A DNA stretch of 32,000 nt from Delftia acidovorans NBRC 14950 (GCF_001598795.1 NZ_BCZP01000018.1:60001-92000), one strand, 5' to 3'; shown: positions 8,677 to 29,948, counted from the stretch's first letter. Translations and numbers: made by a program. Notes: generated by a model not told the origin, from the sequence alone.

Positions 8677-8753
8677 GTGGCGGGCGCAGGGGCCCGGCAC
8701 CGGGCGCCTGCATGCACTCCCCTTGACAGTCTCTTTCGCTGCGGAGCATTCGC

Positions 8754-10493
8754 ATGAGCATCGATTCCATGGCGGCGCCCGCCGCCGCCCCCCTTGCTGC
8801 GCGCGCACGGCGCATTCCGTCGGGCTGGGGGCCGTGGCTGGCCTTCGCGCTGATCCTGGCCTTTTTGCTGGCCTTTCTCATCGTGCCCGTGGGCATGGTG
8901 GTCTACACCGCCTTCGTCAATGAAGGCGGCGGGCTCACGCTGGGGCACTTCGGCAATTTCTTCGGCCAGACCGTCTTCCGCGAGTCGTTCTTCAACAGCC
9001 TGGGCGTGTCCCTGGCCAGCGTGTTCTTCGCCAGCCTGATCGCCGTGCCGCTGGCCTACCTGACCGTGCGCTTCGAGTTCCGGGGCGCGCTGCTGATACA
9101 GACGCTGGGCGTGCTGCCGCTGATCATGCCGCCCTTCGTGGGGGCGGTGGCGCTGCAGCTGATCTTCGGGCGCAGCGGCTCGGTCAACCTGCTGCTGGAC
9201 GACTGGTTCGGCTTCACCGTGCCCATCATGGAGGGGCTGACGGGCGTGATCTTCGTGGAGAGCATCCACTACTTCCCGTTCATCCTGCTCAACCTCGTGG
9301 CGGCCATGCGCAATATCGACGGGGCCATGGAGGAGTCGGCGCTGAACCTGGGCTCGCGTGGCTTTCGGCTGTTTCGGCGCGTGATCTTTCCGCTGGCCAT
9401 GCCCGGCTACCTGGCGGGCGCGGCCCTGGTGTTCGTGAAAGTGTTCGACGACCTGGGCACGCCGCTGGTGATGGGCGTGACCAATATGCTGGCGCCCCAG
9501 GCCTATCTGCGCATCACCTCGGTGGGGCTCGATGATCCGCTGGGCTATGTGATCAGCGTGATCATGATCGCGTTCTCCATCGTCGCCCTGTGGCTGGCTG
9601 CGCGGGTGATGAAGGGCAAGGACTACGCCACGCTGCAAAAGGGCGGCAGCGCGCTGCAAAAGCGCCGGCTGTCGGCCTGGGAGGCGCTGCTGGCCTATGG
9701 CTGGATCGCCCTGGTGCTGCTGGTGGTGCTGGCGCCGCACATCGGCATCTTGCTGATGTCGTTCTCCAAGGTCTGGAGCTTCTCGGTGCTGCCCGACAGC
9801 TACACGCTGGAGCACTACGCCACGGTGTTCACCGACTCGGGCTACATGATCGGCAACACGCTGCTGTACTGCCTGATGGCGGCGGGCATCGACGTGGTGA
9901 TCGGCACCGCCATCGCCTACCTGATCCTGCGCACCCGGCTGCCTGCCCGGCAGTGGCTGGACTATCTGGCCTCGGTGGCACTGGCGATTCCGGGGCTGGT
10001 GCTGGCCATCGGCTATCTGCGGCTGTTCAAGGGCGTGAACCTGCCCTTCACCGATACGCCCATCGTCACCACCTGGGTGCTGATCATGCTGGCCTATGCG
10101 GTGCGGCGGCTGCCGTATGCGCTGCGCTCGTGCATGGCGGCGCTGCAGCAGGTGCACATCTCGCTGGAGGAGGCCGCGCAAAGCTTGGGCGCGGGCCGCA
10201 CCAGCGTGATACGGCGCGTGATGGTGCCGCTGATGGCCGGCGGCATCCTGGCCGGCTTCGTCACCAGCTTCATCACGGCGGCCGTGGAACTGTCGGCCAC
10301 CATCATGCTGGCCTCGGCCCAGAGCCAGGCGCCCATGAGCTACGGCATCTACCTGTACATGCAAAGCATTTCGGGGCGCGGACCCGGTGCGGCATTGGGC
10401 GTGCTGGCCGTGGTCGTGGTCGGCCTGGGCACGTATTTCTCGCACCGCTTCGTGGAGCGCTCGCGCGCCACCGTGCAATCGACTTCGGAGTGA
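8754..10493 (+). CDS. ABC transporter permease, fused double MetI-type domain (FbpB/ThiP-like)
   Basis: 579 aa with ~12 hydrophobic segments and two EAA-loop-like regions (MEESALNLGSRGFRLFRRVIFPLAMP and LEEAAQSLGAGRTSVIRRVMVPLMAG). Confidence 0.9.
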   Translation: MSIDSMAAPAAAPLAARARRIPSGWGPWLAFALILAFLLAFLIVPVGMVVYTAFVNEGGGLTLGHFGNFFGQTVFRESFFNSLGVSLASVFFASLIAVPLAYLTVRFEFRGALLIQTLGVLPLIMPPFVGAVALQLIFGRSGSVNLLLDDWFGFTVPIMEGLTGVIFVESIHYFPFILLNLVAAMRNIDGAMEESALNLGSRGFRLFRRVIFPLAMPGYLAGAALVFVKVFDDLGTPLVMGVTNMLAPQAYLRITSVGLDDPLGYVISVIMIAFSIVALWLAARVMKGKDYATLQKGGSALQKRRLSAWEALLAYGWIALVLLVVLAPHIGILLMSFSKVWSFSVLPDSYTLEHYATVFTDSGYMIGNTLLYCLMAAGIDVVIGTAIAYLILRTRLPARQWLDYLASVALAIPGLVLAIGYLRLFKGVNLPFTDTPIVTTWVLIMLAYAVRRLPYALRSCMAALQQVHISLEEAAQSLGAGRTSVIRRVMVPLMAGGILAGFVTSFITAAVELSATIMLASAQSQAPMSYGIYLYMQSISGRGPGAALGVLAVVVVGLGTYFSHRFVERSRATVQSTSE

Positions 10494-10499
10494 AACGCC

Positions 10500-11591
10500 A
10501 TGCACCTGGACCCTGTCTCCCTCGAATGCAGGCACATCAGCCTGAGCTACGGCAGCAACGAAGTGCTGCGCGACGTCAACCTCAAGATCGAGCCCGGCGA
10601 GTTCTTCGCGCTGCTGGGGCCTTCGGGCTCGGGCAAGTCCACGCTGCTGCGGCTGATCGCGGGCTTCAACCGGCACCAGCGCGGCGAGCTGCTGGTGGGC
10701 GGGCAGGACATCACGGGGGTTCCGCCGCATGCGCGCAACATCGGCATGGTGTTCCAGAACTATGCGCTGTGGCCGCACATGACGGTGTACGACAACGTGG
10801 CCTTCGGCCTGGTCGAGCGCCGCGAAAGCCGCGACACCATCCGCCGCAAGGTGGGCGAAGTGCTGGAGCTGGTGGGCCTGTCGCAGTACGCGCAGCGCCG
10901 CCCGGGCCAGCTGTCGGGCGGGCAGCAGCAGCGCGTGGCGCTGGCGCGCACCGTGGTCATCGCGCCCAAGCTGCTGCTGTTGGACGAGCCCCTGTCCAAC
11001 CTCGACAAGCAGCTGCGCGTGCAGATGCGCGAGGAACTGCGCAGCCTGCAGCGCAAGCTGGGCCTGACCACCATCTTCGTCACCCACGACCAGGAAGAGG
11101 CCATGACCACGGCCGACCGCATGGCCGTGCTCGACAAGGGCGTGCTGCAGCAGGTGGGCTCGGCGGCGGGGCTGTACGACTATCCGGCCAACCGCTTCGT
11201 GGCGGGCTTTGTCGGCACGGCCAATGTGCTGGAGGGCGAGGTGTTGCCGACGATAGGCGAGTCGCTGGCCTTCAAGGTGCCGGGCCTGGGCACGCTGACC
11301 CTGCCGCGCCCGGCCCAGCCGCCCGCGCCGGGGCGTGCGGCGCTGGCCTTCCGGCCGCACCAGGTGCAGATTGCGGTGCGCGACGATGCGGGCGATGCCT
11401 CGCGTGTGTGGGTGGAAGGGCAGATCGAAAGCGCCGAGTTCCTGGGCGAGTTCTCGCGCTACCGCGTGCGCGTGGGCGAGGTGGCCGTGGTCGCCGACCA
11501 GGCGCACTACGCGGGCATTGCCATGTTCCCCATGGGCATGCCGGTGCGCCTGGGCATCGAGCCCACGCAGCTGCGCTACCTCGACGAGTGA
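10500..11591 (+). CDS. ABC transporter ATP-binding protein (PotA/FbpC-like with C-terminal TOBE-type domain)
   Basis: Walker A GPSGSGKST, Q-loop, signature LSGGQQQRVALAR, Walker B LLLLDEP and H-loop VTHDQEEA. Starts 6 nt after the permease stop. Confidence 0.92.
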   Translation: MHLDPVSLECRHISLSYGSNEVLRDVNLKIEPGEFFALLGPSGSGKSTLLRLIAGFNRHQRGELLVGGQDITGVPPHARNIGMVFQNYALWPHMTVYDNVAFGLVERRESRDTIRRKVGEVLELVGLSQYAQRRPGQLSGGQQQRVALARTVVIAPKLLLLDEPLSNLDKQLRVQMREELRSLQRKLGLTTIFVTHDQEEAMTTADRMAVLDKGVLQQVGSAAGLYDYPANRFVAGFVGTANVLEGEVLPTIGESLAFKVPGLGTLTLPRPAQPPAPGRAALAFRPHQVQIAVRDDAGDASRVWVEGQIESAEFLGEFSRYRVRVGEVAVVADQAHYAGIAMFPMGMPVRLGIEPTQLRYLDE

Positions 11592-17267: not shown

Positions 17268-17936
17268 TCAGCGGCTGCACTCGCCCTTGAGCGCAGCGGC
17301 CGCCAGCATGGGCAGGCTCAGCAGGCCCATGCCGCCGCCCTTGAACTCGCCCTTCATGCAATCGCCCTGGGCGGCCTCACGCATGCCGCTGGCCAGCGGG
17401 TCCTCGCGCTGCGCATGGATCTGGGGCCTGACCAGGCCTTGCCGGGCCGCCGACTGCACGGCCTCGCGGCCTGCGGCCGAGTCCAGCAGGCGGCTCATGG
17501 CCCTGGCGCTGCGCGCGGTGTCCGGGACGGCCTCGGTGTCGGCGGGCACAGGCGCTTGCGGCGCGGCGGCTGTTGCGGCTTCCTCCATGGCCTTTGCCGC
17601 CCCTGCGCTTTGCCTTGAAGGCGGTGCGGCGGTGTCCGGCCGCCGCGCAGGCTTGGGCCTGGGCGCGGAACTGGGCGCGGGCGCCGGTCCGGGCCGGGCA
17701 GCCGCTGGAGCAGGAGAGGGGGCCGGCGTCGGCGTCGGCATCGGCATCGGCATCGGCATCGGCGTCTCGACCCAGACCACCTGAAGGCGGTGCGCCTCGG
17801 CCTGCCCGGTGCCGGGCCGCGCAATGTCCGGGGACAGACCCTGCCACAGCAGCGCCCCGTGCAGCAGCAGCGACAGCAGCAGGCCCGCGATCAGCCGCAG
17901 CCGTCCGCTGCTCAAGCCTCGGGCCCTGCCACCCAT
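17268..17936 (-). CDS. hypothetical membrane-anchored protein with Pro/Ala-rich linker (PMPMPMPMPTPTP)
   Basis: N-terminal anchor RLRLIAGLLLSLLLHGALLW, a long P/A-rich low-complexity middle and a C-terminal ~70 aa with two Cys. The start is ambiguous: ATG 17960, ATG 17936, or TTG 17915, which overlaps the HTH stop as cTTGAg. Last gene of the DUF2975-HTH operon. Confidence 0.5.
   Translation of the reverse strand: MGGRARGLSSGRLRLIAGLLLSLLLHGALLWQGLSPDIARPGTGQAEAHRLQVVWVETPMPMPMPMPTPTPAPSPAPAAARPGPAPAPSSAPRPKPARRPDTAAPPSRQSAGAAKAMEEAATAAAPQAPVPADTEAVPDTARSARAMSRLLDSAAGREAVQSAARQGLVRPQIHAQREDPLASGMREAAQGDCMKGEFKGGGMGLLSLPMLAAAALKGECSR
17725..17766 (-). repeat. in-frame hexanucleotide repeat (GGCRTC)x7 on + strand, encoding (Pro-Met)/(Pro-Thr) repeats on - strand
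   Basis: Read directly: ggcgtc x2, ggcatc x4, ggcgtc x1. Confidence 0.9.
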
Positions 17937-18127
17937 TCCAGCAGGTCGCCGGGCTGGCACTGCAGTGCCTCGCAGATGCGCTCCAGCGTGTCGAAGCGCA
18001 CGCCGCGCACCTTGCCGCTCTTGAGTAGGGAAATATTCTGTTCGGTGATGCCGACCATCTCGGCCAGTTCGCGCGAACGCATCTTGCGGCGCGCCAGCAT
18101 CACATCGAGGTGGACGATGATGGGCAT
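17912..18127 (-). CDS. small Cro/CI-type helix-turn-helix transcriptional regulator (YozG-like, 71 aa)
   Basis: MPIIVHLDVMLARRKMRSRELAEMVGITEQNISLLKSGKVRGVRFDTLERICEALQCQPGDLLEW matches the short XRE-family proteins that pair with DUF2975 genes. The start lies 2 nt after the upstream gene's stop. Confidence 0.8.
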   Translation of the reverse strand: MPIIVHLDVMLARRKMRSRELAEMVGITEQNISLLKSGKVRGVRFDTLERICEALQCQPGDLLEWVAGPEA

Positions 18128-19398: not shown

Positions 19399-20079
19399 TT
19401 GAACGCGCTCTACCCCCTTCTCGCCACCGTGGCGGCCTACCTGATCGGCTCGCTGTCGTTCGCCGTCATCGTCAGCCGGGCCATGGGCCTGAATGATCCG
19501 CGCACCTATGGCAGCGGCAACCCCGGTGCCACCAATGTGCTGCGTTCCGGCAGCAAGGCGGCCGCAGCCGTGACCCTGTTGCTGGACGCCGCCAAGGGCT
19601 GGCTGCCCGTGGCCCTGGTGCAATGGTTCGGCAGCCGCTTCGGCCTGGGCGACGGCACGGTGGCCATGGTGGCGCTGGCCGCCTTCCTGGGCCACCTGTA
19701 CCCGGTGTTCTTCCGCTTCAAGGGCGGCAAGGGCGTGGCCACAGCCCTGGGCGTGCTGCTGGGCATCAGCGTCTGGCTGGGCCTGGCGGTGGCGCTGACC
19801 TGGCTGATCATTGCCGTGTTCTTCCGCTATTCCTCGCTGGCGGCCCTGGTGGCATCCGTGTTCGCCCCCGTCTACTACCTCCTGTGCAGTGGCGTGGTCT
19901 GGTATGCCGAGACGCCGATTGCCGCCGCCATCGTCGCCATGGCTGCCCTGCTGATCTGGCGCCACCGCGAGAACATCCAGCGCCTGATGGCCGGCAAGGA
20001 ATCCAGGCTGGGCAGCAAGAAGGCCGACCCGGCAGCCGCCGCGGCCAAGCCCGGCACGGCCAAAGGCAAGCCGCATTGA
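19399..20079 (+). CDS. plsY: glycerol-3-phosphate acyltransferase PlsY
   Basis: TTG 19399 has AAGGA 6 nt upstream and gives [26 protein letters not shown]. Motifs [30 protein letters not shown]. The only upstream in-frame ATG (19255) would add a ~48-aa non-homologous extension. Confidence 0.85.
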
Positions 20080-20092
20080 CCGCCGCCACCGC

Positions 20093-20113
20093 GCTGCGCT
20101 CCACGGGCGCAGC
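20093..20113 (+). terminator. hairpin GCTGCGC-tccacgg-GCGCAGC downstream of plsY (candidate terminator, weak T tail)
   Basis: 7-bp perfect stem and 7-nt loop, 14 nt after the plsY stop, followed only by TT. Confidence 0.35.
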
Positions 20114-20177
20114 TTGCGTGAATGGCGTGGCCGGCCAGCCGCGCTCCAGGCCCTCTCACCACTGACGACCTTCCCAC

Positions 20178-21710
20178 ATGGCATCGAGTCCATCGCAGCG
20201 CGTCTACCGCGCACCTTGCCCCGGCTGCGGCGCGCCCGTGGAATTTTCCAGCGCCCAGGCCAGCTACGCCGTCTGCGAGTTCTGCCGCAGCACCGTGGTG
20301 CGCCAGGGCGATGTGCTGCAGCGCCGCGGCTCCATGGCCGAGGTCTTCGAGGACTACAGCCCCCTGCGCATCGGCGCCACGGGCCAGATGCTGCGCAACG
20401 GCAAGCCCGAGCACTTCACCCTGGTCGGGCGGCTGCAACTCAAGAGCGAGGCGGGGGCCTGGAGCGAATGGGTTGCCGCGTTCAGCGATGGTGCGCTGGG
20501 CTTTCTGAGCGAGGACAACGGCCAGTTCGTCTGGTCCTGGCCCTGGGAGGCCGAGGCCCTGCGCAACGGGCCGTTCAAGGCCTCCGACTGGCTGCTGGGC
20601 TCGCAGCGCGTGCTCGGCGGCAAGAGCTTCACGGTCAGCAGCGTGCAGAACGCGCGGCTGGTATCGGCCCAGGGCGAGCTGGCGCAGCTTCCCGAGCCCG
20701 GCACGCCGTACTGGCTGGTGGAGCTGCGCAGCGAGCAGGGCCAGGTCCTGTCCGTGGACTTCTCGGCCCAGCCGCCTGCGCTGAGCCTGGGCGAACGCGT
20801 GGTGCTGGACGACCTCAGGCTGCAGGGCCTGCGCGACGGCGCCTCGCTCAAGGGCGAGCAGGGCAGGCACTTCAACTGCCCCAAGTGCGGCGCCGTGGTG
20901 CCCGTGCGCTTCACCACCACCAAGAGCCTGAGCTGCCCCAGTTGCGGATCGCTGGTGGACCTGAGCCAGGGCATTGGCAAGGAACTGTCCTATGCCGAAC
21001 AGAACGAGCCCGTGCGCCCCGCCATCCCCCTGGGCAGCAAGGGCGCATTGGAAGGCCTGCAATGGCAGGTGGTGGGCTTTCAGCACCGCATGGGCCAGGA
21101 GCCTGGCGACGACGAGAGCTTTGGCTGGGAGGAATACCTGCTGTTCAGCCAGAAGGCCGGCTTCGCCTTCCTGGTCGATTCCTCTGATGGCTGGAGCATG
21201 GCCCGCGTGACCACGGGCGTGCCCAAGCTCTCCAAGAACCGCAGCACGGCCAAGTACATGGGCCGGCAGTACCAGCTTGAATCGCGCTACACGGCCGAGA
21301 CCACCTATGCGCTGGGCGAGTTCTACTGGCCCGTGCAGCGCGGCCAGACCACGCGCAATGTGGACTATGTGAGCGCAGGCGCGCAGAACAAGGCCTTTCT
21401 GGCCAGCGAGACCGAGAACGGCGAGACCACCTGGTCGCATGGCAGCGCCGTCTCGGCCACCACGCTGGCCACGGCCTTCGGCCTCAAGCAGCTGCGGGAC
21501 CGCTCGCAGGTCGGCGTGATGTCGGGCAGCCGCTTCGGCCTGTGGACCATCGTCATCGGCGTGGTCATCCTGTGGCTGGTGTTCGTCATGCTGCGCGGCT
21601 GCATGTCGCGCCCGAACTGCGACCCGAACACCGATCCCAACTGCAACAGCTACACCCGCAGCAGCGGCGGCTCCTGGGGTGGCTACACCTCGGGCGGCAG
21701 CCACAAGTAA
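20178..21710 (+). CDS. DUF4178-type protein: two tandem [zinc ribbon + DUF4178-like] modules, C-terminal TM anchor
   Basis: Module 1: CPGCGAPVEF...CEFCRS then ...PLRIGATGQMLRNGKPEHFTLVGRLQL...WSEWVAAFSDGALGFLSEDNGQFVW. Module 2 (from Cys234, nt 20877): CPKCGAVVPV...CPSCGS then ...LGSKGALEGLQWQVVGFQHRM...WEEYLLFSQKAGFAFLVDSSDGW. TM LWTIVIGVVILWLVFVML, then tail CMSRPNCDPNTDPNCNSY...GGSWGGYTSGGSHK. Confidence 0.8.
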   Translation: MASSPSQRVYRAPCPGCGAPVEFSSAQASYAVCEFCRSTVVRQGDVLQRRGSMAEVFEDYSPLRIGATGQMLRNGKPEHFTLVGRLQLKSEAGAWSEWVAAFSDGALGFLSEDNGQFVWSWPWEAEALRNGPFKASDWLLGSQRVLGGKSFTVSSVQNARLVSAQGELAQLPEPGTPYWLVELRSEQGQVLSVDFSAQPPALSLGERVVLDDLRLQGLRDGASLKGEQGRHFNCPKCGAVVPVRFTTTKSLSCPSCGSLVDLSQGIGKELSYAEQNEPVRPAIPLGSKGALEGLQWQVVGFQHRMGQEPGDDESFGWEEYLLFSQKAGFAFLVDSSDGWSMARVTTGVPKLSKNRSTAKYMGRQYQLESRYTAETTYALGEFYWPVQRGQTTRNVDYVSAGAQNKAFLASETENGETTWSHGSAVSATTLATAFGLKQLRDRSQVGVMSGSRFGLWTIVIGVVILWLVFVMLRGCMSRPNCDPNTDPNCNSYTRSSGGSWGGYTSGGSHK

Positions 21711-21728
21711 ACAACGGAGAAACTGATC

Positions 21729-21947
21729 ATGAACTTCGACTGGTTCAACCCCGCCGCCTTCTTCGGCTCGATCCTCTATGCGCTGGTGGGCGTGGTGGTG
21801 TTCTGGCTGTGCTTCATCATCATCGACAAGATCACGCCCGTGGACATGTGGGCCGAGATCGTCGAGAAGCACAACAAGGCGCTGGCCATGGTGGTGGCCG
21901 CCATGTGCCTGGGCATCAGCATCATCGTCGCTGCCGCCATCCACTGA
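21729..21947 (+). CDS. DUF350 domain-containing small membrane protein (72 aa)
   Basis: GGAG 9 nt upstream, 18 nt after the DUF4178 gene stop. Two hydrophobic helices (FFGSILYALVGVVVFWLCFIII; LAMVVAAMCLGISIIVAAAI) with the DKITP...E...NxA pattern I associate with DUF350/YjfL-type proteins. Confidence 0.75.
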   Translation: MNFDWFNPAAFFGSILYALVGVVVFWLCFIIIDKITPVDMWAEIVEKHNKALAMVVAAMCLGISIIVAAAIH

Positions 21948-22035
21948 ACGGGGCCGCCTGGCCCCCCCGCACTCCCCATCTCCCGCCGACACGCAGCCCG
22001 CCTGAAAAGGTGCGGCTGCGCTGCGCATGGCGGCG

Positions 22036-22052
22036 TTGTTGCGTGGCAACAA
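22036..22052 (+). terminator. perfect hairpin TTGTTGC-gtg-GCAACAA, preceded by a bulged hairpin at 21993-22019; candidate terminator(s) of the DUF4178-DUF350 unit
   Basis: Read directly: 7-bp stem, 3-nt loop, followed by attccttgtt. The upstream GCAGCC(C)GC-ctgaaaaggt-GCGGCTGC is an 8-bp stem with one bulge. Confidence 0.35.
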
Positions 22053-22074
22053 ATTCCTTGTTGATAGTGAGTTT

Positions 22075-22093
22075 GCAAATGATATTCGTTTGC
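22075..22093. promoter_or_regulatory. Fur box-like operator upstream of the TonB-dependent receptor
   Basis: gcaaatgatattcgtttgc matches 13/19 positions of GATAATGATAATCATTATC and sits inside the inverted repeat TGCAAA-N9-TTTGCA (22074-22094). It lies ~45 nt upstream of ATG 22137. A second palindrome, ATTCTA-aa-TAGAAT, is at 22094-22107. Confidence 0.6.
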
Positions 22094-22136
22094 ATTCTAA
22101 ATAGAATCGCCCCCTTCATTCGAAGAGAGGGTTTCC

Positions 22137-24296
22137 ATGACAGACCATCAAGCCGCCCGCAGGGCAAGGCTTTCAGCGGGTGTGACCGCTGGCATCATCA
22201 CCACCGCGCTGGCGGGCGCGGTCCATGCCCAGGAGGCCGCTCCAGCCGTTCCAGCCGATCCGGCCCAGGCACAGACGCAGACGCAGACGCAGCCTCAACA
22301 GGCCCACACCCTGCCCACGCTGCAGGTCAACGCCTCCCAGTACGACCCTGACGACGTGCGCCCCGAAGGCGTGACCACGGCGACCAAGACCTATCTGGCG
22401 CCCAAGGACATCCCGCAGACCATCGATACGCTGGAGGTCAACAAGTACAAGAGCTACGGCATCAACGACCTGGCCACCATGCTGGACGGCGTGCCGGGCG
22501 TGAACACCACCTACGACATGCGTGGCGAGGGCGTGTACATCCGCGGCTTCAAGGCCGACGAGAGCGACATCTACCGCGACGGCGTGCGCGAAAGCGGCCA
22601 GGTGCGCCGCAGCACGGCCAATGTGGAGCGCATCGAGATCCTCAAGGGACCGGCCTCCGTGCTCTACGGCCGCAGCGCGGGCGGCGGCGTGGTCAACATG
22701 GTGAGCAAGCAGGCGCGCTTCGACGCCAAGAGCAGCATCACGCTGCGCGGCGGCTCCTGGGACAACGTGGGCGGCACCATCGACATCAACCGCGTGCTCA
22801 ACGAGAACGTGGCCGTGCGCCTGACGGCCGACCGCGAGCAGGCCCACAGCTTCCGCGAAGGCATACGCAACCGCAACGAGATGGTCTCGCCCAGCATCCT
22901 GGTGGACACCCGCACGGGATGGCGCTGGACCGGCCAGTACACCTATGACAACGTCTGGCGCGTGCCCGATCGCGGTCCGGTCTATGACCAGTTGCCAGCC
23001 GGCGTTTCCATCCGCAAGGGCTTCGCGGCGCCGGGCGACTACGTGGAAGATCGCCTGCGCGTGCTGCGCTCCGACCTGTCCTATGACTTCAACAACCGCT
23101 GGAACCTGCGCTGGGTGGCCAGCAAGCGCGAGGCCAGCCAGGACTTCGACCACTATTTCGCCGGTACCTACCGCGCCGCCACCGGCAAGATCACGCCCAA
23201 CTACGCTTGGCAGCAGACCCGCAACACCACGCTGTCCAACACGCTGGACCTGACGGGCAAGTTCAGCACGGGCAGCATCAAGCACGATCTGCTGGTGGGC
23301 CTGGAGGCCAGCGAGGAAGAGCGCGCGCCGCGCGTCGGCCAGCCCGGCAGCACCTTCTCCTACGATCCGTTCCAGCCCATCGTCTGGCCCAGCCGTCCGG
23401 TGCAGGGCAAGCCGACCCAGGACAACTATCACAAGGGCAAGGGCCAGGCGCTGTACATGCAGGACCTGGTCAGCCTGACCGAGCAGTGGAAGCTGCTGCT
23501 GGGCCTGCGCTACGACAGCTATGACTTCCAGAGCACCAACAAGATCGCCAATCTCACGCGCAAGACCGACGGCAACGGCTTCAGCCCGCGCGTGGGCGTG
23601 GTGTGGCAGCCGGTGCGTGAGCACAGCTTCTATGCGTCCTGGAACAAGAGCTACTCGCCCTATGGCGGCCGCGGCATCCTGACCGTGGAAACCGCCGTGG
23701 GCGCGGTGCCGGACGACGAGCCCCAGTACTCGCGCCAGTCCGAGGTCGGCGTCAAGAGCGACTGGCTCGGCGGTGCGCTGTCCACCCAGGTCTCCGTCTA
23801 CCAGCTGGAGAAGTACAACATCCGCTACCGCCCCGATCCCGAGAACGATCCCTACACCTGGGCCATCCGGGGCAAGGACCGTTCGCGCGGCATCGAGTTC
23901 AGCGCGGCCGGCCGCGTGGCCAGTTCCTGGTATGTGCGAGGCGGCGTGGCCTTCATGGAGGCCAAGGTGGCTGAAGACGCGCAAAACCCCGCCAACGTGG
24001 GCCTGTACCTGCGTGACACGGCCAAGCGCAACGGCAACCTGTTCCTGCGCTATGCGCCCAAGGGCCCCTGGTATGGCGAAGTCGGCGTGACCTACACGGG
24101 CAGCCGCTTCACCAACGCCGCCAACACGGCCCTCCTGCCCGGCTACACGCGCTGGGATGCGCTGGTGGGCTGGCGCCAGGACACCTGGACGGTGACCGTG
24201 GCGCTGTCCAACCTGTTCGACAAGCAGTACTGGCGCTCCAGCTCCATGCCAGGCGCACCGCGCAGCGTTCTGGTCAGCGCCAACTACCAGTTCTGA
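22137..24296 (+). CDS. TonB-dependent (siderophore-type) outer-membrane receptor
   Basis: GAGAGGG SD. Signal peptide ...TALAGAVHAQE. Plug-domain motifs (DIPQTIDTLEV, VYIRGF, VERIEILKGPASVLYGRSAGGGVVNMVSK). Long beta-barrel with C-terminal ...VLVSANYQF. Confidence 0.92.
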   Translation: MTDHQAARRARLSAGVTAGIITTALAGAVHAQEAAPAVPADPAQAQTQTQTQPQQAHTLPTLQVNASQYDPDDVRPEGVTTATKTYLAPKDIPQTIDTLEVNKYKSYGINDLATMLDGVPGVNTTYDMRGEGVYIRGFKADESDIYRDGVRESGQVRRSTANVERIEILKGPASVLYGRSAGGGVVNMVSKQARFDAKSSITLRGGSWDNVGGTIDINRVLNENVAVRLTADREQAHSFREGIRNRNEMVSPSILVDTRTGWRWTGQYTYDNVWRVPDRGPVYDQLPAGVSIRKGFAAPGDYVEDRLRVLRSDLSYDFNNRWNLRWVASKREASQDFDHYFAGTYRAATGKITPNYAWQQTRNTTLSNTLDLTGKFSTGSIKHDLLVGLEASEEERAPRVGQPGSTFSYDPFQPIVWPSRPVQGKPTQDNYHKGKGQALYMQDLVSLTEQWKLLLGLRYDSYDFQSTNKIANLTRKTDGNGFSPRVGVVWQPVREHSFYASWNKSYSPYGGRGILTVETAVGAVPDDEPQYSRQSEVGVKSDWLGGALSTQVSVYQLEKYNIRYRPDPENDPYTWAIRGKDRSRGIEFSAAGRVASSWYVRGGVAFMEAKVAEDAQNPANVGLYLRDTAKRNGNLFLRYAPKGPWYGEVGVTYTGSRFTNAANTALLPGYTRWDALVGWRQDTWTVTVALSNLFDKQYWRSSSMPGAPRSVLVSANYQF

Positions 24297-24320
24297 CGGC
24301 GGAGCCCGAGGCGCTGCGCT

Positions 24321-24359
24321 CCTTCCCGCTTTGCACGGTGTCCGTTGCACGCGGGAAGG
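24321..24359 (+). terminator. 9-bp-stem hairpin CCTTCCCGC-N21-GCGGGAAGG after the receptor stop (terminator or processing/attenuation element, no U tract)
   Basis: Read directly. The loop itself is partly self-complementary (gcacgg/ccgttgc). It starts 25 nt after the stop at 24296 and covers the TTG 24345 candidate start of the next gene. Confidence 0.4.
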
Positions 24360-24383
24360 GGCGCATCGCGCACAATACCGGCC

Positions 24384-25928
24384 GTGCAAACCTCAGCCCC
24401 TCTTGCCGGCGCGCAGCCGGCGCGTCCCATCGACATCGCCCTGCTGGTCAGCGTCTTCGTGATCGCGGCCTGCGGCCTGCTTTACGAACTGGCTGCGGGT
24501 GCGCTGGCTTCCTATCTGCTGGGCGATTCGGTCCTGCAGTTCTCCACCATCATCGGCAGCTACCTGTTCGCCATGGGCATCGGCTCATGGCTTTCGCGCT
24601 ATTTCGAGGACCATCTGCCCGCGCACTTTCTGCGCATCGAGCTGATGGTGGCCCTGGTCGGCGGCGCGCTGCCGGCCACGCTGTTCATTGCCAATGCCTA
24701 CGCGCCCGGCGCGTTCCGCTTTCTGCTGTACGGCATGGTGCTGGTGGTGGGCACGCTGGTGGGGCTGGAGATTCCGCTGGTGATGCGCATCCTCAAGCGC
24801 AATGTGACGCTCAAGGACCTGGTGTCCCAGGTGCTGACCTTCGACTACCTGGGCGCGCTGGCCGTGTCGCTGGCATTTCCGCTGCTGCTGGTGCCCAAGC
24901 TGGGCCTGGTGCGCACGGGGCTGCTGTTCGGCTTCATGAATGCGGCGGTGGCGGTCTGGGCACTGCTGCTGTTTCGGCATGAGCTGCGGCGCCCGCGTGC
25001 CCATGCCCTGGCCTGCGCTGCCGTGCTGGCCTTGCTGGGCACGGGCATCTGGGGCGCCGACCATCTGACGCGCCTGGCCGACGACCATTTCTACCAGGAC
25101 CGCATCGTGCTCTCCAGCAGCTCGCCCTACCAGCGCATCGTGGTGACGCAGGGGCGCCAGGGCGCGCGGCTGTACCTCAACGGCAACCTGCAGTTCGCCC
25201 AAAGCGACGAGTACCGCTACCACGAGGCCCTGGTCCACCCCGTGATGGCCGCGCATGGCGCGCCCAAGCGCGTGGCCGTGCTGGGCGGCGGCGACGGCAT
25301 GGCCGTGCGCGAGGTGCTCAAGTACCCCTCGGTGGAGTCGGTCACCCTGGTGGAGCTGGACCCGGCCATGACCGACCTGTTCAAGGACAACGCCATGCTG
25401 CGCCGGCTCAACGGCGAAGCGCTCAGCGATGCGCGCGTGCACATCCTCAATACCGATGCCTTCCACTGGCTGCAGCAGGGCGGCGATACCTTCGACGTGG
25501 TCATCGTCGATTTCCCCGACCCGACCAATTTCGCCATCGGCAAGCTGTTCACCAACAGCTTCTATGCCTTGCTGGACAAGCGCCTGGCGGCCAGCGGCTA
25601 CGCCGTGGTGCAGACCACCTCGCCCCTGATCGCACGCAAGAGCTACTGGACCGTGGTGCAGACCATCGAATCCATCGGCCTGCAGGCCACGCCCTACCAC
25701 GCCCATGTGCCCAGTTTTGGCGAATGGGGCTTCGTCATCGCCAGCCACCGGCCTTGGCGCGAGCCCGATGCCCTGCCTGCGGGCCTGCGCTTTCTGAGCG
25801 CGCAGACCATGGCGCTGATGTTCGACTTCCCGCTGGACATGGCGCGTGTGCCGGCCGAGGTCAACCGCCTGTCGAACCAGGTGCTGGTCAACACCTACGA
25901 GCGCGAATGGGGCAGGGTGGAGCGTTGA
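24384..25928 (+). CDS. polyamine aminopropyltransferase-like protein (spermidine synthase fold) fused to an N-terminal ~7-TM domain
   Basis: No in-frame ATG near the 5' end. Candidates are GTG 24384 (preferred, outside the hairpin) and TTG 24345. Seven hydrophobic segments, then SPYQRIVVTQ, VLGGGDGMAVREVL, LVELDPAM, NTDAFHWL and VIVDFPDPTNFAIGKLFTNSFY, i.e. intact dcSAM/AdoMet-binding and catalytic-Asp motifs of spermidine synthases. Confidence 0.85.
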   Translation: MQTSAPLAGAQPARPIDIALLVSVFVIAACGLLYELAAGALASYLLGDSVLQFSTIIGSYLFAMGIGSWLSRYFEDHLPAHFLRIELMVALVGGALPATLFIANAYAPGAFRFLLYGMVLVVGTLVGLEIPLVMRILKRNVTLKDLVSQVLTFDYLGALAVSLAFPLLLVPKLGLVRTGLLFGFMNAAVAVWALLLFRHELRRPRAHALACAAVLALLGTGIWGADHLTRLADDHFYQDRIVLSSSSPYQRIVVTQGRQGARLYLNGNLQFAQSDEYRYHEALVHPVMAAHGAPKRVAVLGGGDGMAVREVLKYPSVESVTLVELDPAMTDLFKDNAMLRRLNGEALSDARVHILNTDAFHWLQQGGDTFDVVIVDFPDPTNFAIGKLFTNSFYALLDKRLAASGYAVVQTTSPLIARKSYWTVVQTIESIGLQATPYHAHVPSFGEWGFVIASHRPWREPDALPAGLRFLSAQTMALMFDFPLDMARVPAEVNRLSNQVLVNTYEREWGRVER

Positions 25929-27661
25929 GCACCGGCCTCTCGCCCCTGTGGAGCCGGCGCCAATGGCTGCAGGGCCTGGCCGGCGGCGCGGCCCTGGGCC
26001 TGTCCGGCTGCACGCCAACGCCACCGCGGCTTGAGAACCTGCCCGGCGGATTCAGCGGCGTGGCGCTGGAGCGCGGCCATGCCTTGCGCGCTTTCTGGCA
26101 GCGCCTGGGCCAGGGCCTGGCGCTGCCGGCGCCGGCCGTGGTGCACCGTGCCAAGGTGGTGATTGCCGGCGGCGGCATGGCAGGCCTGGCCGCCGCGCGC
26201 GCACTGGAGCTGGCGGGTGTGCAGGGCGTGGCCCTGCTGGACACGCAGCAGGCCATGGGCGGCAACAGCCAGGGCGGCAGCATTGCGGGCCTGCCCTGTC
26301 CGCTGGGTGCCCACTATCTGCCCCTGCCCAGCGACGATGCGGCCGAGGTGCAGGACTGGCTGGAGGCCCTGGGCCTGCGCCAGCGCCGCGCGGGCCGCTG
26401 GCAGTACGACGAGCGCCATCTGTGCCACAGCCCGCAGGAGCGCCTGTTCTGGCAGGGCGCCTGGCATGAGGGCCTGCTGCCCGTCGATGGCGTGGCGCCG
26501 CGCACGCTGGAGCAGTACGAACTCTTTGCGCGCAGCGTGGCCCAGGAGATGGACAGGGCGGCCTTTGCCATGCCGTCCATCCGTGTCTGGCAGCGCGAGG
26601 GCCGGCTGCCCGCCGCCCATGCCGCGCTGGACGGCCAGACCATGCAGGCCTGGCTGACCAGCCAGGGCATCGATGATGCGCAGCTGATCTGGTATCTGGA
26701 GTACTGCTGCCGCGACGACTTTGGCGCGGGCCTGGCGCGCGTATCGGCCTGGGCAGGCATTCACTATTTCGCCAGCCGCCATGGCTTCTCGGCCCCGCGC
26801 CGCCAGGACGAGCGCACGGCCGAAGACGCCGGCGACGCCGTGCTGACCTGGCCCCAGGGCAATGGCTGGCTGTCGCAGCAGCTGGTGGCAGGGCTGGGCT
26901 CCACCGACCTGCAGACGGATTGCAGCGTGCTATCCATCGCCGAAGGTGCCGACGGTGTGGAGATCGACGTCTACCACCATGGCCGCCAGCAGCACGAGCG
27001 CTGGCTGGCCGCGCGCTGCGTCGTGGCCCTGCCCAGCTTCATCGCGGCACGCGTGGTACGCGATGCGCCGGATTTCCTGCGCGCGGTGGCGGGCCGGCTG
27101 GACTGGGCGCCCTGGCTGGTGGCCAACATCCATCTGCAGCGGCCGCTGGCCGACCGGCCCGGCGCCGATCCGGCCTGGGACAACGTGCTGTTTGCCGATC
27201 CGAATGCGGGCGGTCTGGGCTACGTGGACGCGGGCCACCAGGGCCTGGACCGGCTCACGCCCCGTCCCACGGTGCTCAGTTACTACCAGGCGCTGGGCGA
27301 CTGGCCTGACGGGCGCGCGCAACTGCTGGGCCAGCCCTTCGGCTTCTGGCGGGACCGCATCGTCGGCAGCCTGCTCGTCCCCCATCCCGACCTGCTGCAC
27401 AAGGCCACGCGCATGGAGATCACGCGCTACGGCCACGCCATGGCCATTCCCCGGCCTGGCGACCAGCAACTGCTCAGCCAGGTGGCGCTGCAGTCGCACC
27501 ACCGGGGCCGCAGCGCGCAGTGCGCCGGCGAGCGCGTGGCCCTGCTGCCCACGCCGGGCACGAGACGCCTGTGGTTCGCGCATTCCGACTGGGCCGGCTA
27601 CTCGGTACTGGAGGAGGCCTTCACGCGCGGCCACCATGCGGGCCTGTGGGCTGGCGCCTGA
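25907..27661 (+). CDS. Tat-signal, lipobox-bearing NAD(P)/FAD-dependent oxidoreductase (flavin amine-oxidase-like)
   Basis: SRRQWLQGLAGGAALGLSGC is a twin-arginine motif plus L-S-G-C lipobox. Rossmann fingerprint VVIAGGGMAGLAAARALELAG. Start is either ATG 25907 (22-nt overlap with the upstream gene) or TTG 25925 (gcgTTGAgc overlap with stop TGA 25926-25928). Either implies translational coupling. Confidence 0.8.
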   Translation: MGQGGALSTGLSPLWSRRQWLQGLAGGAALGLSGCTPTPPRLENLPGGFSGVALERGHALRAFWQRLGQGLALPAPAVVHRAKVVIAGGGMAGLAAARALELAGVQGVALLDTQQAMGGNSQGGSIAGLPCPLGAHYLPLPSDDAAEVQDWLEALGLRQRRAGRWQYDERHLCHSPQERLFWQGAWHEGLLPVDGVAPRTLEQYELFARSVAQEMDRAAFAMPSIRVWQREGRLPAAHAALDGQTMQAWLTSQGIDDAQLIWYLEYCCRDDFGAGLARVSAWAGIHYFASRHGFSAPRRQDERTAEDAGDAVLTWPQGNGWLSQQLVAGLGSTDLQTDCSVLSIAEGADGVEIDVYHHGRQQHERWLAARCVVALPSFIAARVVRDAPDFLRAVAGRLDWAPWLVANIHLQRPLADRPGADPAWDNVLFADPNAGGLGYVDAGHQGLDRLTPRPTVLSYYQALGDWPDGRAQLLGQPFGFWRDRIVGSLLVPHPDLLHKATRMEITRYGHAMAIPRPGDQQLLSQVALQSHHRGRSAQCAGERVALLPTPGTRRLWFAHSDWAGYSVLEEAFTRGHHAGLWAGA

Positions 27662-27721
27662 TCTCCATACCGACCTCTTTCGTGGATTCCTGATCGCCGG
27701 GCAAGCTGCTGCCGGTTCGTC

Positions 27722-27740
27722 GCTGGCCGCGTCCGCCAGC
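27722..27740 (+). terminator. hairpin GCTGGC-cgcgtcc-GCCAGC followed by gggTTTg (weak candidate terminator)
   Basis: Read directly, 60 nt after the oxidoreductase stop. Confidence 0.3.
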
Positions 27741-27779
27741 GGGTTTGCCCTTGTCCGTGTGCCGTAGATGCCTGGCTAT

Positions 27780-27818
27780 AGTTCTATTTGATAGATCTTG
27801 ATTCTGTTGGATAGAACT
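27780..27818. promoter_or_regulatory. inverted repeat AGTTCTAT-N23-ATAGAACT with internal TTGATAGA/TTGATTCT/TTGGATAGA repeats upstream of the amidohydrolase gene
   Basis: Read directly in an AT-rich patch 20-60 nt upstream of ATG 27841. Candidate operator/promoter; no cognate regulator gene is adjacent. Confidence 0.3.
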
Positions 27819-27840
27819 TTGAAAAGGGTACGAAACGCAC

Positions 27841-28887
27841 ATGGGCAACTATCTACCGGTGAGGCCGGATTGGCTGGGCCTGCACGAGGAGGAGATCCTT
27901 GAGCCATCGCTGGCCATCGTCGATGCCCACCACCATTTCTACGATCGACCGGGCTGGCGCTACCTGGCGGACGAGTACCTGGCCGACGCGGGCTCGGGCC
28001 ACAGGGTCCGTGCCTCGGTCTACATGCAGGCGCTGACGCGCTACCGCACTGCCGGCCCGCAGGCGATGCAGCCGGTGGGCGAGACCGAGTTCGTGGTGCA
28101 GGCGGCGGAGGGCGTGCAGGACGTGCAAGAGCACAGGCAAGGCCATGCGGCCTGTGCCCTTGCGCAGGGCATCGTCGGATATGCGGACCTGCGCGCCGGT
28201 GCGGCGGTGCGCGAGGTGTTGCTGGCCCATCTGGAGGCCGGCAAGGGGCGCTTTCGTGGCATCCGGCACCTGGTGACCTGGGACGCGGACAGTTCCCTGG
28301 TCAATCCCCTGACCGCCGCGCCGCAGGGCCTGCTGCTGGACCGGTCCTACCGGCAGGGCGTGGCGCAGTTGGCGCCGTTGGGGCTTTCCTTCGATGCCTG
28401 GCTGCTTTTTCCGCAGCTGCCGGAGCTGCTGGACCTGGCACTGGCCTTTCCGCAGACGGCCGTGATCATCAACCACTGCGGGGGCGTGGCGCGCATCGGC
28501 GCCTATGAAGGCCGGCATGCCGAGGTGTTCGAGCGCTGGAAGACCTCCATGCAGGCCCTGGCCCGGCTGCCCAATGTGTACGTGAAGCTCGGCGGGCTGG
28601 GCATGCGCATCAACGGATTCGGCTTCGAGAAAGCGGACAGGCCTGCGGCCTCGGAGCAACTGGCTGCGGCCTGGAGACCGTGGATGGAGACCTGCATCGA
28701 GGCATTCGGCGCCGACCGCTGCATGTTCGAGAGCAATTTCCCGGTGGACAAGGGCTCCTTCAGCTACGCCACCTGCTGGAACGCCTTCAAGCGGCTGGCG
28801 GCGGGCGCAAGTGCCGCCGAGCGCCAGGCCCTTTTCGAAGGAACGGCAAGCCGCGTGTACCGGCTGGGCCAGGCGCAGCGCGAATGA
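27841..28887 (+). CDS. amidohydrolase family protein (Amidohydro_2/metal-dependent hydrolase-decarboxylase type)
   Basis: LAIVDAHHHFYDRPGWRY (HxH metal motif at the first beta-strand), VIINHCGG and FESNFPVDK are typical of the amidohydrolase-2 TIM-barrel family. Confidence 0.8.
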   Translation: MGNYLPVRPDWLGLHEEEILEPSLAIVDAHHHFYDRPGWRYLADEYLADAGSGHRVRASVYMQALTRYRTAGPQAMQPVGETEFVVQAAEGVQDVQEHRQGHAACALAQGIVGYADLRAGAAVREVLLAHLEAGKGRFRGIRHLVTWDADSSLVNPLTAAPQGLLLDRSYRQGVAQLAPLGLSFDAWLLFPQLPELLDLALAFPQTAVIINHCGGVARIGAYEGRHAEVFERWKTSMQALARLPNVYVKLGGLGMRINGFGFEKADRPAASEQLAAAWRPWMETCIEAFGADRCMFESNFPVDKGSFSYATCWNAFKRLAAGASAAERQALFEGTASRVYRLGQAQRE

Positions 28888-28979
28888 CGCTGCGTCACAG
28901 GAGCCATCTGCCTCGCCTGCCCCATCGATCCCATCTCACCCGACTTATTCGTCCAAGCCATCATTCCAAGGAGACCGCC

Positions 28980-29948
28980 ATGCCATCCCTCATCTCTCGT
29001 CGCGCCATGCTGGCGCTGGCCGGCACAGCCTGCCTAGCCCCCGCCTGGGCGGCGGCCCAGGGCAAGCCCGTGACCATCATCGTGCCGTATGCGCCGGGCG
29101 GCAGCGCCGATCTGGTGACGCGCGTGATCGCGCAGTTCGCCGCGCCGGGACTGGGCTCTGCCTTGGTGGTGGACAACCGCACCGGCGGTGGCGGCGTGGT
29201 GGGCTGGAGCGCGGCCGCGCGTGCCGCGCCCGACGGCCAGACGCTGCTGACCGTGGAGCTGTCCTATGCCATTGCAGCCGGCCTGATGCCGAACCTGCCC
29301 TTCGATCCGCGCAAGGCGTTCACCCAGGTCACCACGGTGGTGAAGGTGCCCCATGTGCTGGTGGTCAACCCCCAGGTGCAGGCGCGCAGCGTGGGCGAGT
29401 TCATTGCGCTGGCCAGGGCGCAGCCCGGCAAGCTCAACTACGGCTCTGGCGGCAACGGCACCAACACCCACCTGGCCGGCGAGCTGTTCAAAAGCGCAAC
29501 GGGCGCCGACCTGGTCCATGTGCCGTACAAGGGCGCGGGCGCCGTGCTGGCCGACCTGATGGGCAACCAGGTGCAGGCCCTGATCACCTCGGTCCCCACG
29601 GCGCTGCCCTACATCCGAAGCGGCAAGCTCAGGGCACTGATGGTGACGGGCTCGGAGCGCAATGTAACGCTGCCTGATGTGCCTTGTGCCAAAGAGGCCG
29701 GCATCCCCGCCATGGACATCGACTACTGGATTGGCATAGGCGCCCCGGCCGGCACGCCTGCGGCCGCCGTTGCCCGGTTGAACAAGGAATTCAACGCGGC
29801 ACTGGCCCAGCCGCAGGCCAGCCGGAAGATGGCGGAGATGGGGCTGTCCGTGGTGGCGAACACGCCCGAGCAGGCCACGCAATGGGTGCAGAACGAGATA
29901 CAGCGCTGGAGCGCCGTGATCCGGCAGGCGGGCATCAAGGCCGATTGA
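28980..29948 (+). CDS. tripartite tricarboxylate transporter substrate-binding protein (Bug/TctC family)
   Basis: AAGGAGAC SD before ATG 28980. Signal MPSLISRRAMLALAGTACLAPAWAAAQ. KPVTIIVPYAPGGSADLVTR, VDNRTGGGG, NYGSGGNGTNTHL and VPYKGAGAVLADLMGNQV are the classic Bug-family pattern. Confidence 0.9.
   Translation: MPSLISRRAMLALAGTACLAPAWAAAQGKPVTIIVPYAPGGSADLVTRVIAQFAAPGLGSALVVDNRTGGGGVVGWSAAARAAPDGQTLLTVELSYAIAAGLMPNLPFDPRKAFTQVTTVVKVPHVLVVNPQVQARSVGEFIALARAQPGKLNYGSGGNGTNTHLAGELFKSATGADLVHVPYKGAGAVLADLMGNQVQALITSVPTALPYIRSGKLRALMVTGSERNVTLPDVPCAKEAGIPAMDIDYWIGIGAPAGTPAAAVARLNKEFNAALAQPQASRKMAEMGLSVVANTPEQATQWVQNEIQRWSAVIRQAGIKAD

Follow-up and report, generated by a model that had tools for sequence, protein, structure and literature searches.

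A conserved four-gene module with a membrane-fused aminopropyltransferase and a predicted Tat flavoenzyme, and the receptor gene that interrupts it in Delftia acidovorans

Operons that combine a spermine/spermidine synthase fused to a seven-transmembrane (7TM) domain with DUF350 and DUF4178 genes have already been described computationally (Ravi et al., 2024, mSystems, PMC11237479). Their authors propose either a link between polyamines and membrane dynamics of the PspA type, or the aminopropylation of other substrates, and they credit the linkage of these operons to AdoMet decarboxylase (AdoMetDC; AdoMet, S-adenosylmethionine) to Li et al. (2019). In Pseudomonas aeruginosa, SpeE2 is a thermospermine synthase and SpdH carries a strong signal for twin-arginine translocation (Tat); the two enzymes were proposed to yield norspermidine at the cell surface, protecting the outer membrane (Li et al., 2024, PMC11107197). 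Here we describe a locus in a 32,000-nucleotide stretch of Delftia acidovorans DNA, hereafter the window, in which genes for DUF4178 and DUF350 proteins, a 7TM-fused aminopropyltransferase (SpeE) and a flavin amine oxidase lie on one strand, the first pair being separated from the second by a gene for a TonB-dependent receptor. The four genes that concern us first are:

20178-21710, + strand: DUF4178 protein of 510 amino acids (aa), assigned by Pfam DUF4178 and sequence reading
21729-21947, + strand: DUF350 (YjfL-type) two-helix membrane protein of 72 aa (Pfam, E 3.2e-13)
24384-25928, + strand: 7TM-fused polyamine aminopropyltransferase (SpeE) of 514 aa with a GTG start, in an open reading frame (ORF) that opens with TTG at 24345 (NF002956)
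25907 (ATG, annotated in Delftia) or 25925 (TTG, behind GGTGGAG) to 27661, + strand: predicted Tat lipoprotein enzyme of the flavin amine oxidase family (Amino_oxidase and NAD_binding_8)

The window locus is a reduced copy of the published gene association. We consider it rather probable that these four genes form the core of a widespread envelope module, for which we propose a mechanism of periplasmic synthesis, and that the receptor is a separate, inserted siderophore-uptake gene. The new element is the predicted extracytoplasmic site of both enzymes; the association as such is already published. An earlier note on this DNA, made from the sequence, had suggested that all five genes may belong to one envelope-located system. 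ORF and profile hidden Markov model (HMM) analysis confirmed its five + strand reading frames with their domains and motifs, and its envelope location agrees with the Tat lipoprotein, the 7TM fusion and the small membrane proteins found here.

Conservation of the four-gene module

To define the gene neighbourhood, we aligned 83 diverse full-length homologues of the window SpeE at 35-66% identity and fetched 80 genomic loci for this anchor, from Comamonadaceae, other Burkholderiales, Rhodocyclales, Competibacteraceae, Acidobacteriota and one myxobacterium. All six-frame ORFs were searched with HMMs iterated from the window proteins; 68 loci had enough upstream DNA to be assessed, 71 had enough downstream DNA and 62 had both. 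DUF4178 was present upstream of SpeE in 60 of the 68 loci, and DUF350, as well as the complete DUF4178-DUF350 pair, in 58. The flavin amine oxidase followed SpeE in 63/71 loci. All four genes were found in 49 of the 62 loci, always in the order DUF4178, DUF350, 7TM-SpeE, oxidase and on the same strand, with median gaps of 61, 87 and 27 nt, and this order extends from Burkholderiales to Acidobacteriota and Myxococcota. An independent set of metagenome contigs was anchored on DUF4178, the scan being seeded by a betaproteobacterial subset after a 35-sequence alignment had proved too diverse. DUF350 accompanied DUF4178 in 51/52 of these loci, while SpeE and the oxidase, scored only where the contig was long enough (36 loci), were present in 31 and 25 respectively. 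Both surveys support that the DUF4178/DUF350 and SpeE/oxidase pairs form one conserved unit. Co-occurrence of the two pairs was the refutation test that the earlier note had itself named, and its outcome is overwhelmingly positive; the neighbourhoods of this kind that the note mentioned for other proteobacteria are real, with the same order and strand across phyla. The 7TM-SpeE family comprises 1,317 clusters at 50% identity (E ≤ 1e-30) in Proteobacteria, Acidobacteriota and Myxococcota; its members are routinely annotated as plain "spermidine synthase".

Two further genes recur beside the four and go beyond the earlier note, as does the published status of the association. The usual full system includes a Band-7/SPFH-SHOCT gene, which stands directly upstream of DUF4178 in 39/62 loci; Band-7/SHOCT was found in 53 SpeE-anchored loci and in 52/55 metagenome loci. 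AdoMetDC is linked in relatives: HMM searches placed it within 10 kb in 36/84 related loci, and in 11/62 a small AdoMetDC gene lies directly upstream of DUF4178, each time with Band-7 one gene further up. The linked decarboxylases are of the small self-cleaving type with an LLAESH motif and have no signal peptide. They are encoded upstream on the same strand in Acidobacteriota, and downstream on the opposite strand in Burkholderiales. Downstream of the oxidase no conserved gene was found besides AdoMetDC (6/49 loci).

In the window, PlsY adjoins DUF4178 on the upstream side, an arrangement seen in 4/62 loci, of the Comamonas group. The Band-7 HMM gave no match in the window, nor was such a gene among the window genes scanned or the annotated genes of locus L088. 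Likewise, the AdoMetDC HMM had no match in the window or in C. testosteroni, and none of the annotated genes of L088 is an AdoMetDC; neither gene lies within ±10 kb of the module in Delftia or C. testosteroni. No PspA, CesT/Tir or Ctha_1186 lipoprotein gene is among the window genes. The Delftia/Comamonas version is thus a minimal, reduced form of the module. No AdoMetDC named from Comamonas or Delftia was among the best 120 homologues, which is not evidence of absence; the same AdoMetDC family is common in Comamonadaceae genomes at sites other than the module. The earlier note had pointed out that the window has no AdoMetDC gene and had left the aminopropyl donor unexplained: the absence stood, and the linked decarboxylases provide an answer to the second point for the relatives, though not for Delftia.

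The DUF4178 protein contains two Cys4 ribbons (CPGC..CEFC at residues 14-37 and CPKC..CPSC at 234-257), each followed by a Pfam DUF4178 match, at residues 79-208 (E 8.6e-8) and 285-426 (whole protein E 2.4e-29). By sequence reading, one C-terminal transmembrane (TM) helix at about 454-472 precedes a 35-aa Cys/Asn/Gly-rich tail, and the N-terminal 450 aa are predicted to be cytoplasmic. This agrees with the tandem zinc-ribbon modules, helix and tail of the earlier note. A weak alignment of the two halves with each other covers the ribbon (E 0.001). Acidobacteriota and some Betaproteobacteria encode the two DUF4178 modules separately, and in these split-gene loci the second module carries an extra domain between two TM helices. 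The DUF350 gene begins 18 nt past the DUF4178 gene with its own GGAG, and its K/R counts place the loop of the predicted protein on the inside.

Acidobacteriota and some Betaproteobacteria have a conserved 60-62-aa ORF that separates DUF4178 from DUF350 (9592-9777 in L079, 9486-9671 in L077 and about 20 other loci). This membrane ORF, directly before DUF350, shows a GQYRG motif and a hydrophobic helix at its N-terminus; it has no Pfam match and is absent from the window. In Acidovorax facilis (L090, 10001-14753), a gene of the same small AdoMetDC family and then an NTP_transferase gene stand beside a convergent operon that comprises a 169-aa gene, PspA, YqiJ and flotillin. This neighbourhood, apart from the SpeE module, again links AdoMetDC to membrane stress and fits the PspA/polyamine theme of Ravi et al. 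The module is repeatedly wired to membrane-stress machinery of this sort, for example Band-7/SPFH, PspA and flotillin.

Topology of the fused SpeE and a proposed mechanism

The window SpeE scored 688 bits against NF002956 (PRK03612, polyamine aminopropyltransferase; cut-off 472), which bears out the spermidine-synthase fold that the earlier note had assigned to the 24384-25928 product. Its motifs are GGGDG (301-305), VELD (323-326) and DFPDP (376-380); among the 83 homologues, G301, G303, D326, D358, D376 and D379 are invariant, and G302, D304 and G305 are at least 90% conserved. The catalytic domain is nearest to the Medicago thermospermine synthase 6BQ2 and the Thermus triamine/agmatine enzyme 1UIR (E 5e-33 and 3e-32). 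An AlphaFold2 model from a shallow alignment (26 sequences, 80-93% identity) reached a pLDDT of 57 and was discarded; a deeper alignment gave a model with a pLDDT of 87, for which Foldseek returned 1UIR and 6BQ2 as top matches, with TM-scores of ∼0.7-0.8 normalized to the target. As judged from motifs and model, the catalytic half shows a complete aminopropyltransferase fold with every motif for catalysis and for binding of decarboxylated AdoMet (dcAdoMet); aminopropyl transfer from dcAdoMet would be its activity by family assignment.

The membrane half of SpeE is as conserved as the catalytic half. At least 90% of the 83 sequences share Y34, E35, G47, E129 and Y155; P131 and D154 are invariant, and the three carboxylates E35, E129 and D154 are kept at 35% identity and above. 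In the model, the TM helices comprise residues 15-46, 49-73, 78-106, 108-138, 143-173, 175-196 and 204-223; a short linker helix follows TM7 and leads into the catalytic domain, and an eighth helix is absent. K+R residues number 10.6 on average in the N-terminus together with loops 2-3, 4-5 and 6-7, versus 0.9 in loops 1-2, 3-4 and 5-6, and this bias has the same sign in 83/83 homologues. By the positive-inside rule, the N-terminus would be cytoplasmic; since seven helices follow, the aminopropyltransferase domain is predicted to be periplasmic, on the same side as the Tat-exported oxidase. Under this predicted topology, E35 falls in the middle of TM1, and TM4 and TM5 carry E129 and D154, respectively, close to their cytoplasmic ends. 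Apparent DUF350-SpeE fusion ORFs in five loci were rejected as out-of-frame upstream extensions, and longer SpeE homologues (557-936 aa) had no extra Pfam domain by which the topology could be fixed.

The oxidase N-terminus, SRRQWLQGLAGGAALGLSGC (SRRQWLQG...LSGC), combines a twin-arginine motif with a hydrophobic stretch and a lipobox behind it. In 56/61 oxidase orthologues, a twin-arginine motif stands ahead of the conserved GH-x-LR block. The lipobox cysteine is found in 38 of the 61, mainly from Proteobacteria; most of the others, mainly from Acidobacteriota, keep the Tat motif only. This conservation of the Tat motif suggests that the oxidase is exported folded with its flavin and that export of the flavoprotein is a conserved property. 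Either start of the oxidase gene overlaps the end of speE, and translational coupling of the two genes is therefore probable. The protein matched Pfam Amino_oxidase with 39.7 bits (cut-off 19.8), and NAD_binding_8 as well. The nearest matches of the family profile are monoamine oxidase, putrescine oxidase and cyclohexylamine oxidase, with E 1e-14 to 1e-13 over profile positions 57-359; for the FAHSD...SGY...EEA segment near the C-terminus, the region of an FAD motif, the alignment stayed below significance (-0.5 bits). The P. aeruginosa spermidine dehydrogenase matches the profile only over the FAD-binding start, and the substrate domain of the window oxidase is highly diverged from that of solved enzymes.

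We hypothesize, tentatively, that SpeE works outside the cytoplasm, with its seven-helix domain carrying dcAdoMet or the acceptor across the inner membrane and the Tat oxidase trimming the product there. In such a scheme, the 7TM domain with its three conserved membrane-embedded carboxylates would pass a cationic substrate to the SpeE domain, either dcAdoMet from the linked cytoplasmic decarboxylase or a polyamine acceptor. In analogy to SpeE2 and the Tat-exported SpdH of P. aeruginosa, SpeE could then make a longer polyamine on the periplasmic face of the inner membrane, and the oxidase might cleave or trim it to an envelope-associated polyamine or aldehyde. The DUF4178 protein, a putative cytoplasmic zinc-ribbon protein with a membrane anchor, would serve together with DUF350 and Band-7 as scaffold or regulator on the membrane.

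Several points weigh against this scheme. The components are known from computation; the earlier note's statement that DUF4178, DUF350 and membrane-fused SpeE-like proteins have no experimentally defined function agrees with the literature examined, in which no tested function or substrate was found for any component. We know of no precedent for a periplasmic AdoMet-type transferase. The topology of SpeE follows from a prediction rule, and amine oxidation is a family-level assignment, as the oxidase aligns with solved amine oxidases only over the FAD-binding and part of the substrate domain. The Delftia/Comamonas loci lack Band-7 and AdoMetDC in the DNA examined, and their module may have decayed in part, or other regions of the genome may supply what it lacks. 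Finally, the donor dcAdoMet arises in the cytoplasm, and no export signal is found on the linked decarboxylases; a 7TM domain acting as a conduit for donor or acceptor would be the simplest answer to this problem.

The cytoplasmic location of dcAdoMet and of the linked AdoMetDC also favours a different arrangement, possible but doubtful, in which SpeE is tethered to the membrane with its catalytic domain in the cytoplasm and draws on the ordinary dcAdoMet pool; the 7TM domain would export the product, which the periplasmic Tat oxidase would degrade or recycle. The canonical SpeE enzymes in the PDB, all soluble and cytoplasmic, favour such a synthase-exporter, and so does a screen for exported proteins in Mycobacterium tuberculosis (EXIT), which listed Rv2599 as exported but not the SpeE homologue Rv2601. 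However, the absence of Rv2601 is uninformative because the fusions work only with a native promoter inside the cloned fragment, and even the extracytoplasmic loops of the protein went unscored. A cytoplasmic catalytic domain would moreover require an outside N-terminus with seven TM helices, and hence ∼8.7 K/R per protein in periplasmic versus ∼0.9 in cytoplasmic loops in all 83 homologues, and the model has no eighth helix with which to avoid this.

It is considerably less probable that the Delftia/Comamonas module is a decaying remnant, which lost Band-7/SHOCT and AdoMetDC, was split by an insertion and no longer works as a system, its genes persisting singly or heading to loss. The lack of both genes around the Delftia and C. 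testosteroni modules is what such decay would leave, and the few Comamonas-group loci with PlsY directly upstream of DUF4178 are in keeping with it. Comamonadaceae, too, are reported to contain mainly putrescine and 2-hydroxyputrescine, not spermidine. Yet all four ORFs are intact, the catalytic and TM residues are all conserved at 80-95% identity across Comamonas, Delftia and Acidovorax, and the SpeE-oxidase overlap is kept; the AdoMetDC family encoded elsewhere in Comamonadaceae genomes also speaks against decay.

If both enzymes do act in the periplasm, as we propose, polyamines would be made or remodelled at the envelope and not exported ready-made. This would constitute an extracytoplasmic pathway of polyamine synthesis and editing, with the first AdoMet-derived group transfer known in the periplasm, and it would bear on the protection of the outer membrane against cationic antibiotics, as in P. 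aeruginosa.

The receptor gene and other insertions

Between DUF350 and SpeE the window contains four further features:

21950-21965, 21983-22033 and 22036-22052, + strand: three stem-loops closing the DUF4178-DUF350 unit (minimum free energy -52 kcal/mol, z -2.4)
22075-22093, with the promoter region to 22107, + strand: Fur-like box GCAAATGATATTCGTTTGC, overlapping sigma-70-like -35/-10 elements (ATGATA...TAGAAT)
22137-24296, + strand: TonB-dependent siderophore receptor of 719 aa, Fiu/catecholate-like, with Plug and TonB barrel domains (TIGR01783)
24311-24371, + strand: strong stem-loop of 19 pairs between receptor and SpeE (minimum free energy -51 kcal/mol, z -4.3, 0/200 shuffles as stable)

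The receptor scored 296 bits against TIGR01783 (E 4.6e-88, cut-off 223), and its best named relative is Fiu. At homologous loci, a receptor at this position is rare. In C. testosteroni, C. guangdongensis and Ottowia, SpeE follows DUF350 directly, with no receptor between them. A receptor homologue was present in 2/84 SpeE-anchored loci (the window itself and one Acidovorax) and in 2/80 DUF4178-anchored loci; orthologues at the DUF350-SpeE junction were restricted to L087 (89% identity), L107 (72%) and one Acidovorax, where a type I restriction island also lies between receptor and SpeE. Elsewhere the same junction holds a DNA methylase with Schlafen and ResIII genes, Fic, phospholipase D (PLD) or a chemoreceptor, and is thus a cargo-tolerant boundary. 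The PLD (HKD) gene occupies 8226-9923 of an Ottowia metagenome-assembled genome (L031). Since related flotillin/PspA operons are described with PLD genes as well (Ravi et al., 2024, PMC11237479), the presence of this one at the junction may be more than chance.

The receptor gene also lies between hairpins and appears to have its own promoter. Three stem-loops close the unit before it, one more than the earlier note had counted, and the last of them (22036-22052) is terminator-like with a T-rich tail. The segment from 22075 to 22107, inside a stretch of 57-70% A+T, reads as the receptor's own promoter with a putative Fur box, and the receptor is probably Fur-regulated. The box matches the E. 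coli consensus at 13/19 positions and by score alone is not unique in the window; a search for the Fur consensus with ≤ 3 mismatches gave no match. It overlaps, however, the sole promoter-like site of the scanned region (19900-28000), and L087 has the core TGCAAATGATATTCGTTTGCATTCTAAATAGAATCGCC with few changes (4 substitutions in 38 bases), although the flanks have diverged there. The stem-loop behind the receptor, which the earlier note had given a 9-bp stem, has no U tract; it could be a variant of a Rho-independent terminator, an mRNA-stabilizing element or an insertion scar.

Because the receptor is rare at this junction, has its own promoter, is flanked by hairpins and is replaced by unrelated cargo elsewhere, we read it as a passenger: it is a lineage-specific insertion within one Comamonadaceae sub-lineage and not a part of the module. 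Probably, a separate siderophore-uptake gene entered the locus where the two gene pairs meet and has since been inherited in this sub-lineage. The earlier note had left open whether the receptor is an uptake arm of the system or a later insertion, and it is the second alternative that distribution, promoter and other cargo favour; with the receptor, which holds this position only in Delftia and a few other Comamonadaceae, both the five-gene system and its tie to iron fall away. One finding argues in the other direction, namely that an orthologous receptor was kept at the junction over considerable divergence (72% identity), and a loose functional tie between receptor and module is a residual possibility. 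Spermidine-based catecholate siderophores exist, and one could picture the five genes as one iron-linked system, in which SpeE and the oxidase make or process a polyamine-based siderophore, or an iron-polyamine complex, for import by the receptor. A Fiu/catecholate-like receptor with a Fur-like box inside the module, and orthologues with 72-89% identity in the same position in three other lineages, would suit such a system, but we judge it very improbable and largely refuted by the receptor distribution, given that all but a handful of ∼160 related loci, C. testosteroni included, lack the receptor at this junction, that restriction systems, Fic, PLD and chemoreceptor genes take its place, that it has its own promoter and strong flanking hairpins, and that no siderophore synthetase gene is present in the window. 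The message for the window is that the TonB receptor should not be counted within the module.

The SpeE-oxidase junction also accommodates additional genes, a hybrid sensor kinase and a response regulator-HD (RR-HD) pair being found there in three genera. In Simplicispira, Comamonas badia and Melaminivora (L012, 11645-17243; L017, 13047-17755; L024, 11561-17155), ∼5.7-6.2 kb of same-strand genes lie between speE and the oxidase gene, and all three insertions contain a gene of hybrid-sensor-kinase size (∼1240 aa) and a 330-aa gene. By Pfam, the L012 insertion encodes an MHYT-PAS-HK-receiver-Hpt protein, a receiver-HD_5 protein and then a 287-aa protein without assignment. In Delftia and C. testosteroni, an HD_5 protein is encoded by the first conserved gene past the oxidase, on the opposite strand. 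The HD_5 and sensor-kinase genes near the module may represent a regulatory link.

Between the oxidase and this HD_5 gene, the window carries Amidohydro_2 and TctC/Bug-family binding-protein genes (27841-29948). C. testosteroni and the close relative L087 lack both genes at the matching position, which makes this a second lineage-specific insertion beside the module. Further upstream, at 7348-11591, lies an ABC importer. Its solute-binding protein matches SBP_bac_6/1, its double permease is fused into 579 aa, and its ATPase carries TOBE_2, an architecture that we read as iron(III)-type (FbpABC-like) or polyamine-type (PotD-like). At 17268-17960 on the - strand, between an aldo-keto reductase gene and an HTH_26/DUF2975 pair, a putative 230-aa Pro/Ala-rich ORF has a (PM)4-(PT)2 repeat; it was not called by a codon-bias gene caller, and in L087 a 210-aa gene without Pfam match is annotated at the matching place.

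Comparison with known systems

The closest described systems are the operons of Ravi et al., which share the four core families and their arrangement with the window; its relatives carry Band-7/SHOCT and AdoMetDC as described there. Unlike those operons, the window has no PspA, CesT/Tir, Band-7/SHOCT, Ctha_1186 lipoprotein or AdoMetDC, and it is interrupted by the TonB receptor. The published work was purely computational and did not discuss the membrane side of the synthase domain.

A variant from M. tuberculosis, with DUF4247 and DUF2617, was described in the same study (Ravi et al., 2024, PMC11237479). There, these two families replace Band-7, and no Tat amine oxidase is mentioned. In the corresponding region, Rv2597-Rv2601, the annotation gives a spermidine synthase for Rv2601 and an integral membrane protein for Rv2600, and only Rv2599 has been experimentally shown to be exported. 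Rv2601 presumably belongs with the 7TM-fused synthases, and Rv2597 would be a DUF4178 protein.

The E. coli yjfIJKLMC operon, to which the earlier note had turned as a precedent, likewise places a DUF350 protein (YjfL) beside a polyamine-related enzyme in a membrane-stress context, but DUF350 is all that it has in common with the window. Its enzyme is an ATP-grasp homologue of glutathionylspermidine synthetase and not SpeE, and it is accompanied by a PspA paralogue, DUF2491 and DUF1190; DUF4178, amine oxidase and 7TM-SpeE are missing. Conversely, neither a PspA/IM30 paralogue nor an ATP-grasp glutathionylspermidine-synthetase homologue is among the window genes.

Canonical soluble synthases (Thermus thermophilus SpeE 1UIR, Medicago thermospermine synthase 6BQ2 and Thermotoga maritima 1JQ3) resemble the window SpeE with ∼30% identity, root-mean-square deviations of 1.9-3.5 Å and target-normalized TM-scores of ∼0.7-0.8. 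They are cytoplasmic and have no membrane domain, whereas the window SpeE begins with a 225-aa 7TM domain, and F replaces the Y of their VPSY-type motif.

A functional counterpart is the PmrAB-controlled speD2-speE2 pair (PA4773-PA4774) of P. aeruginosa together with SpdH. The genes of speE2 and spdH are not adjacent there and come with neither DUF4178 nor DUF350, SpeE2 is not known to have a membrane domain, and SpdH, an FAD/heme protein, matches the window oxidase over the FAD-binding N-terminus only. The window SpeE domain is nevertheless nearest to thermospermine and Thermus-type enzymes, as with the SpeE2 type, and in both cases a thermospermine-type aminopropyltransferase would be paired with a Tat flavoprotein, which in P. 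aeruginosa cleaves polyamines.

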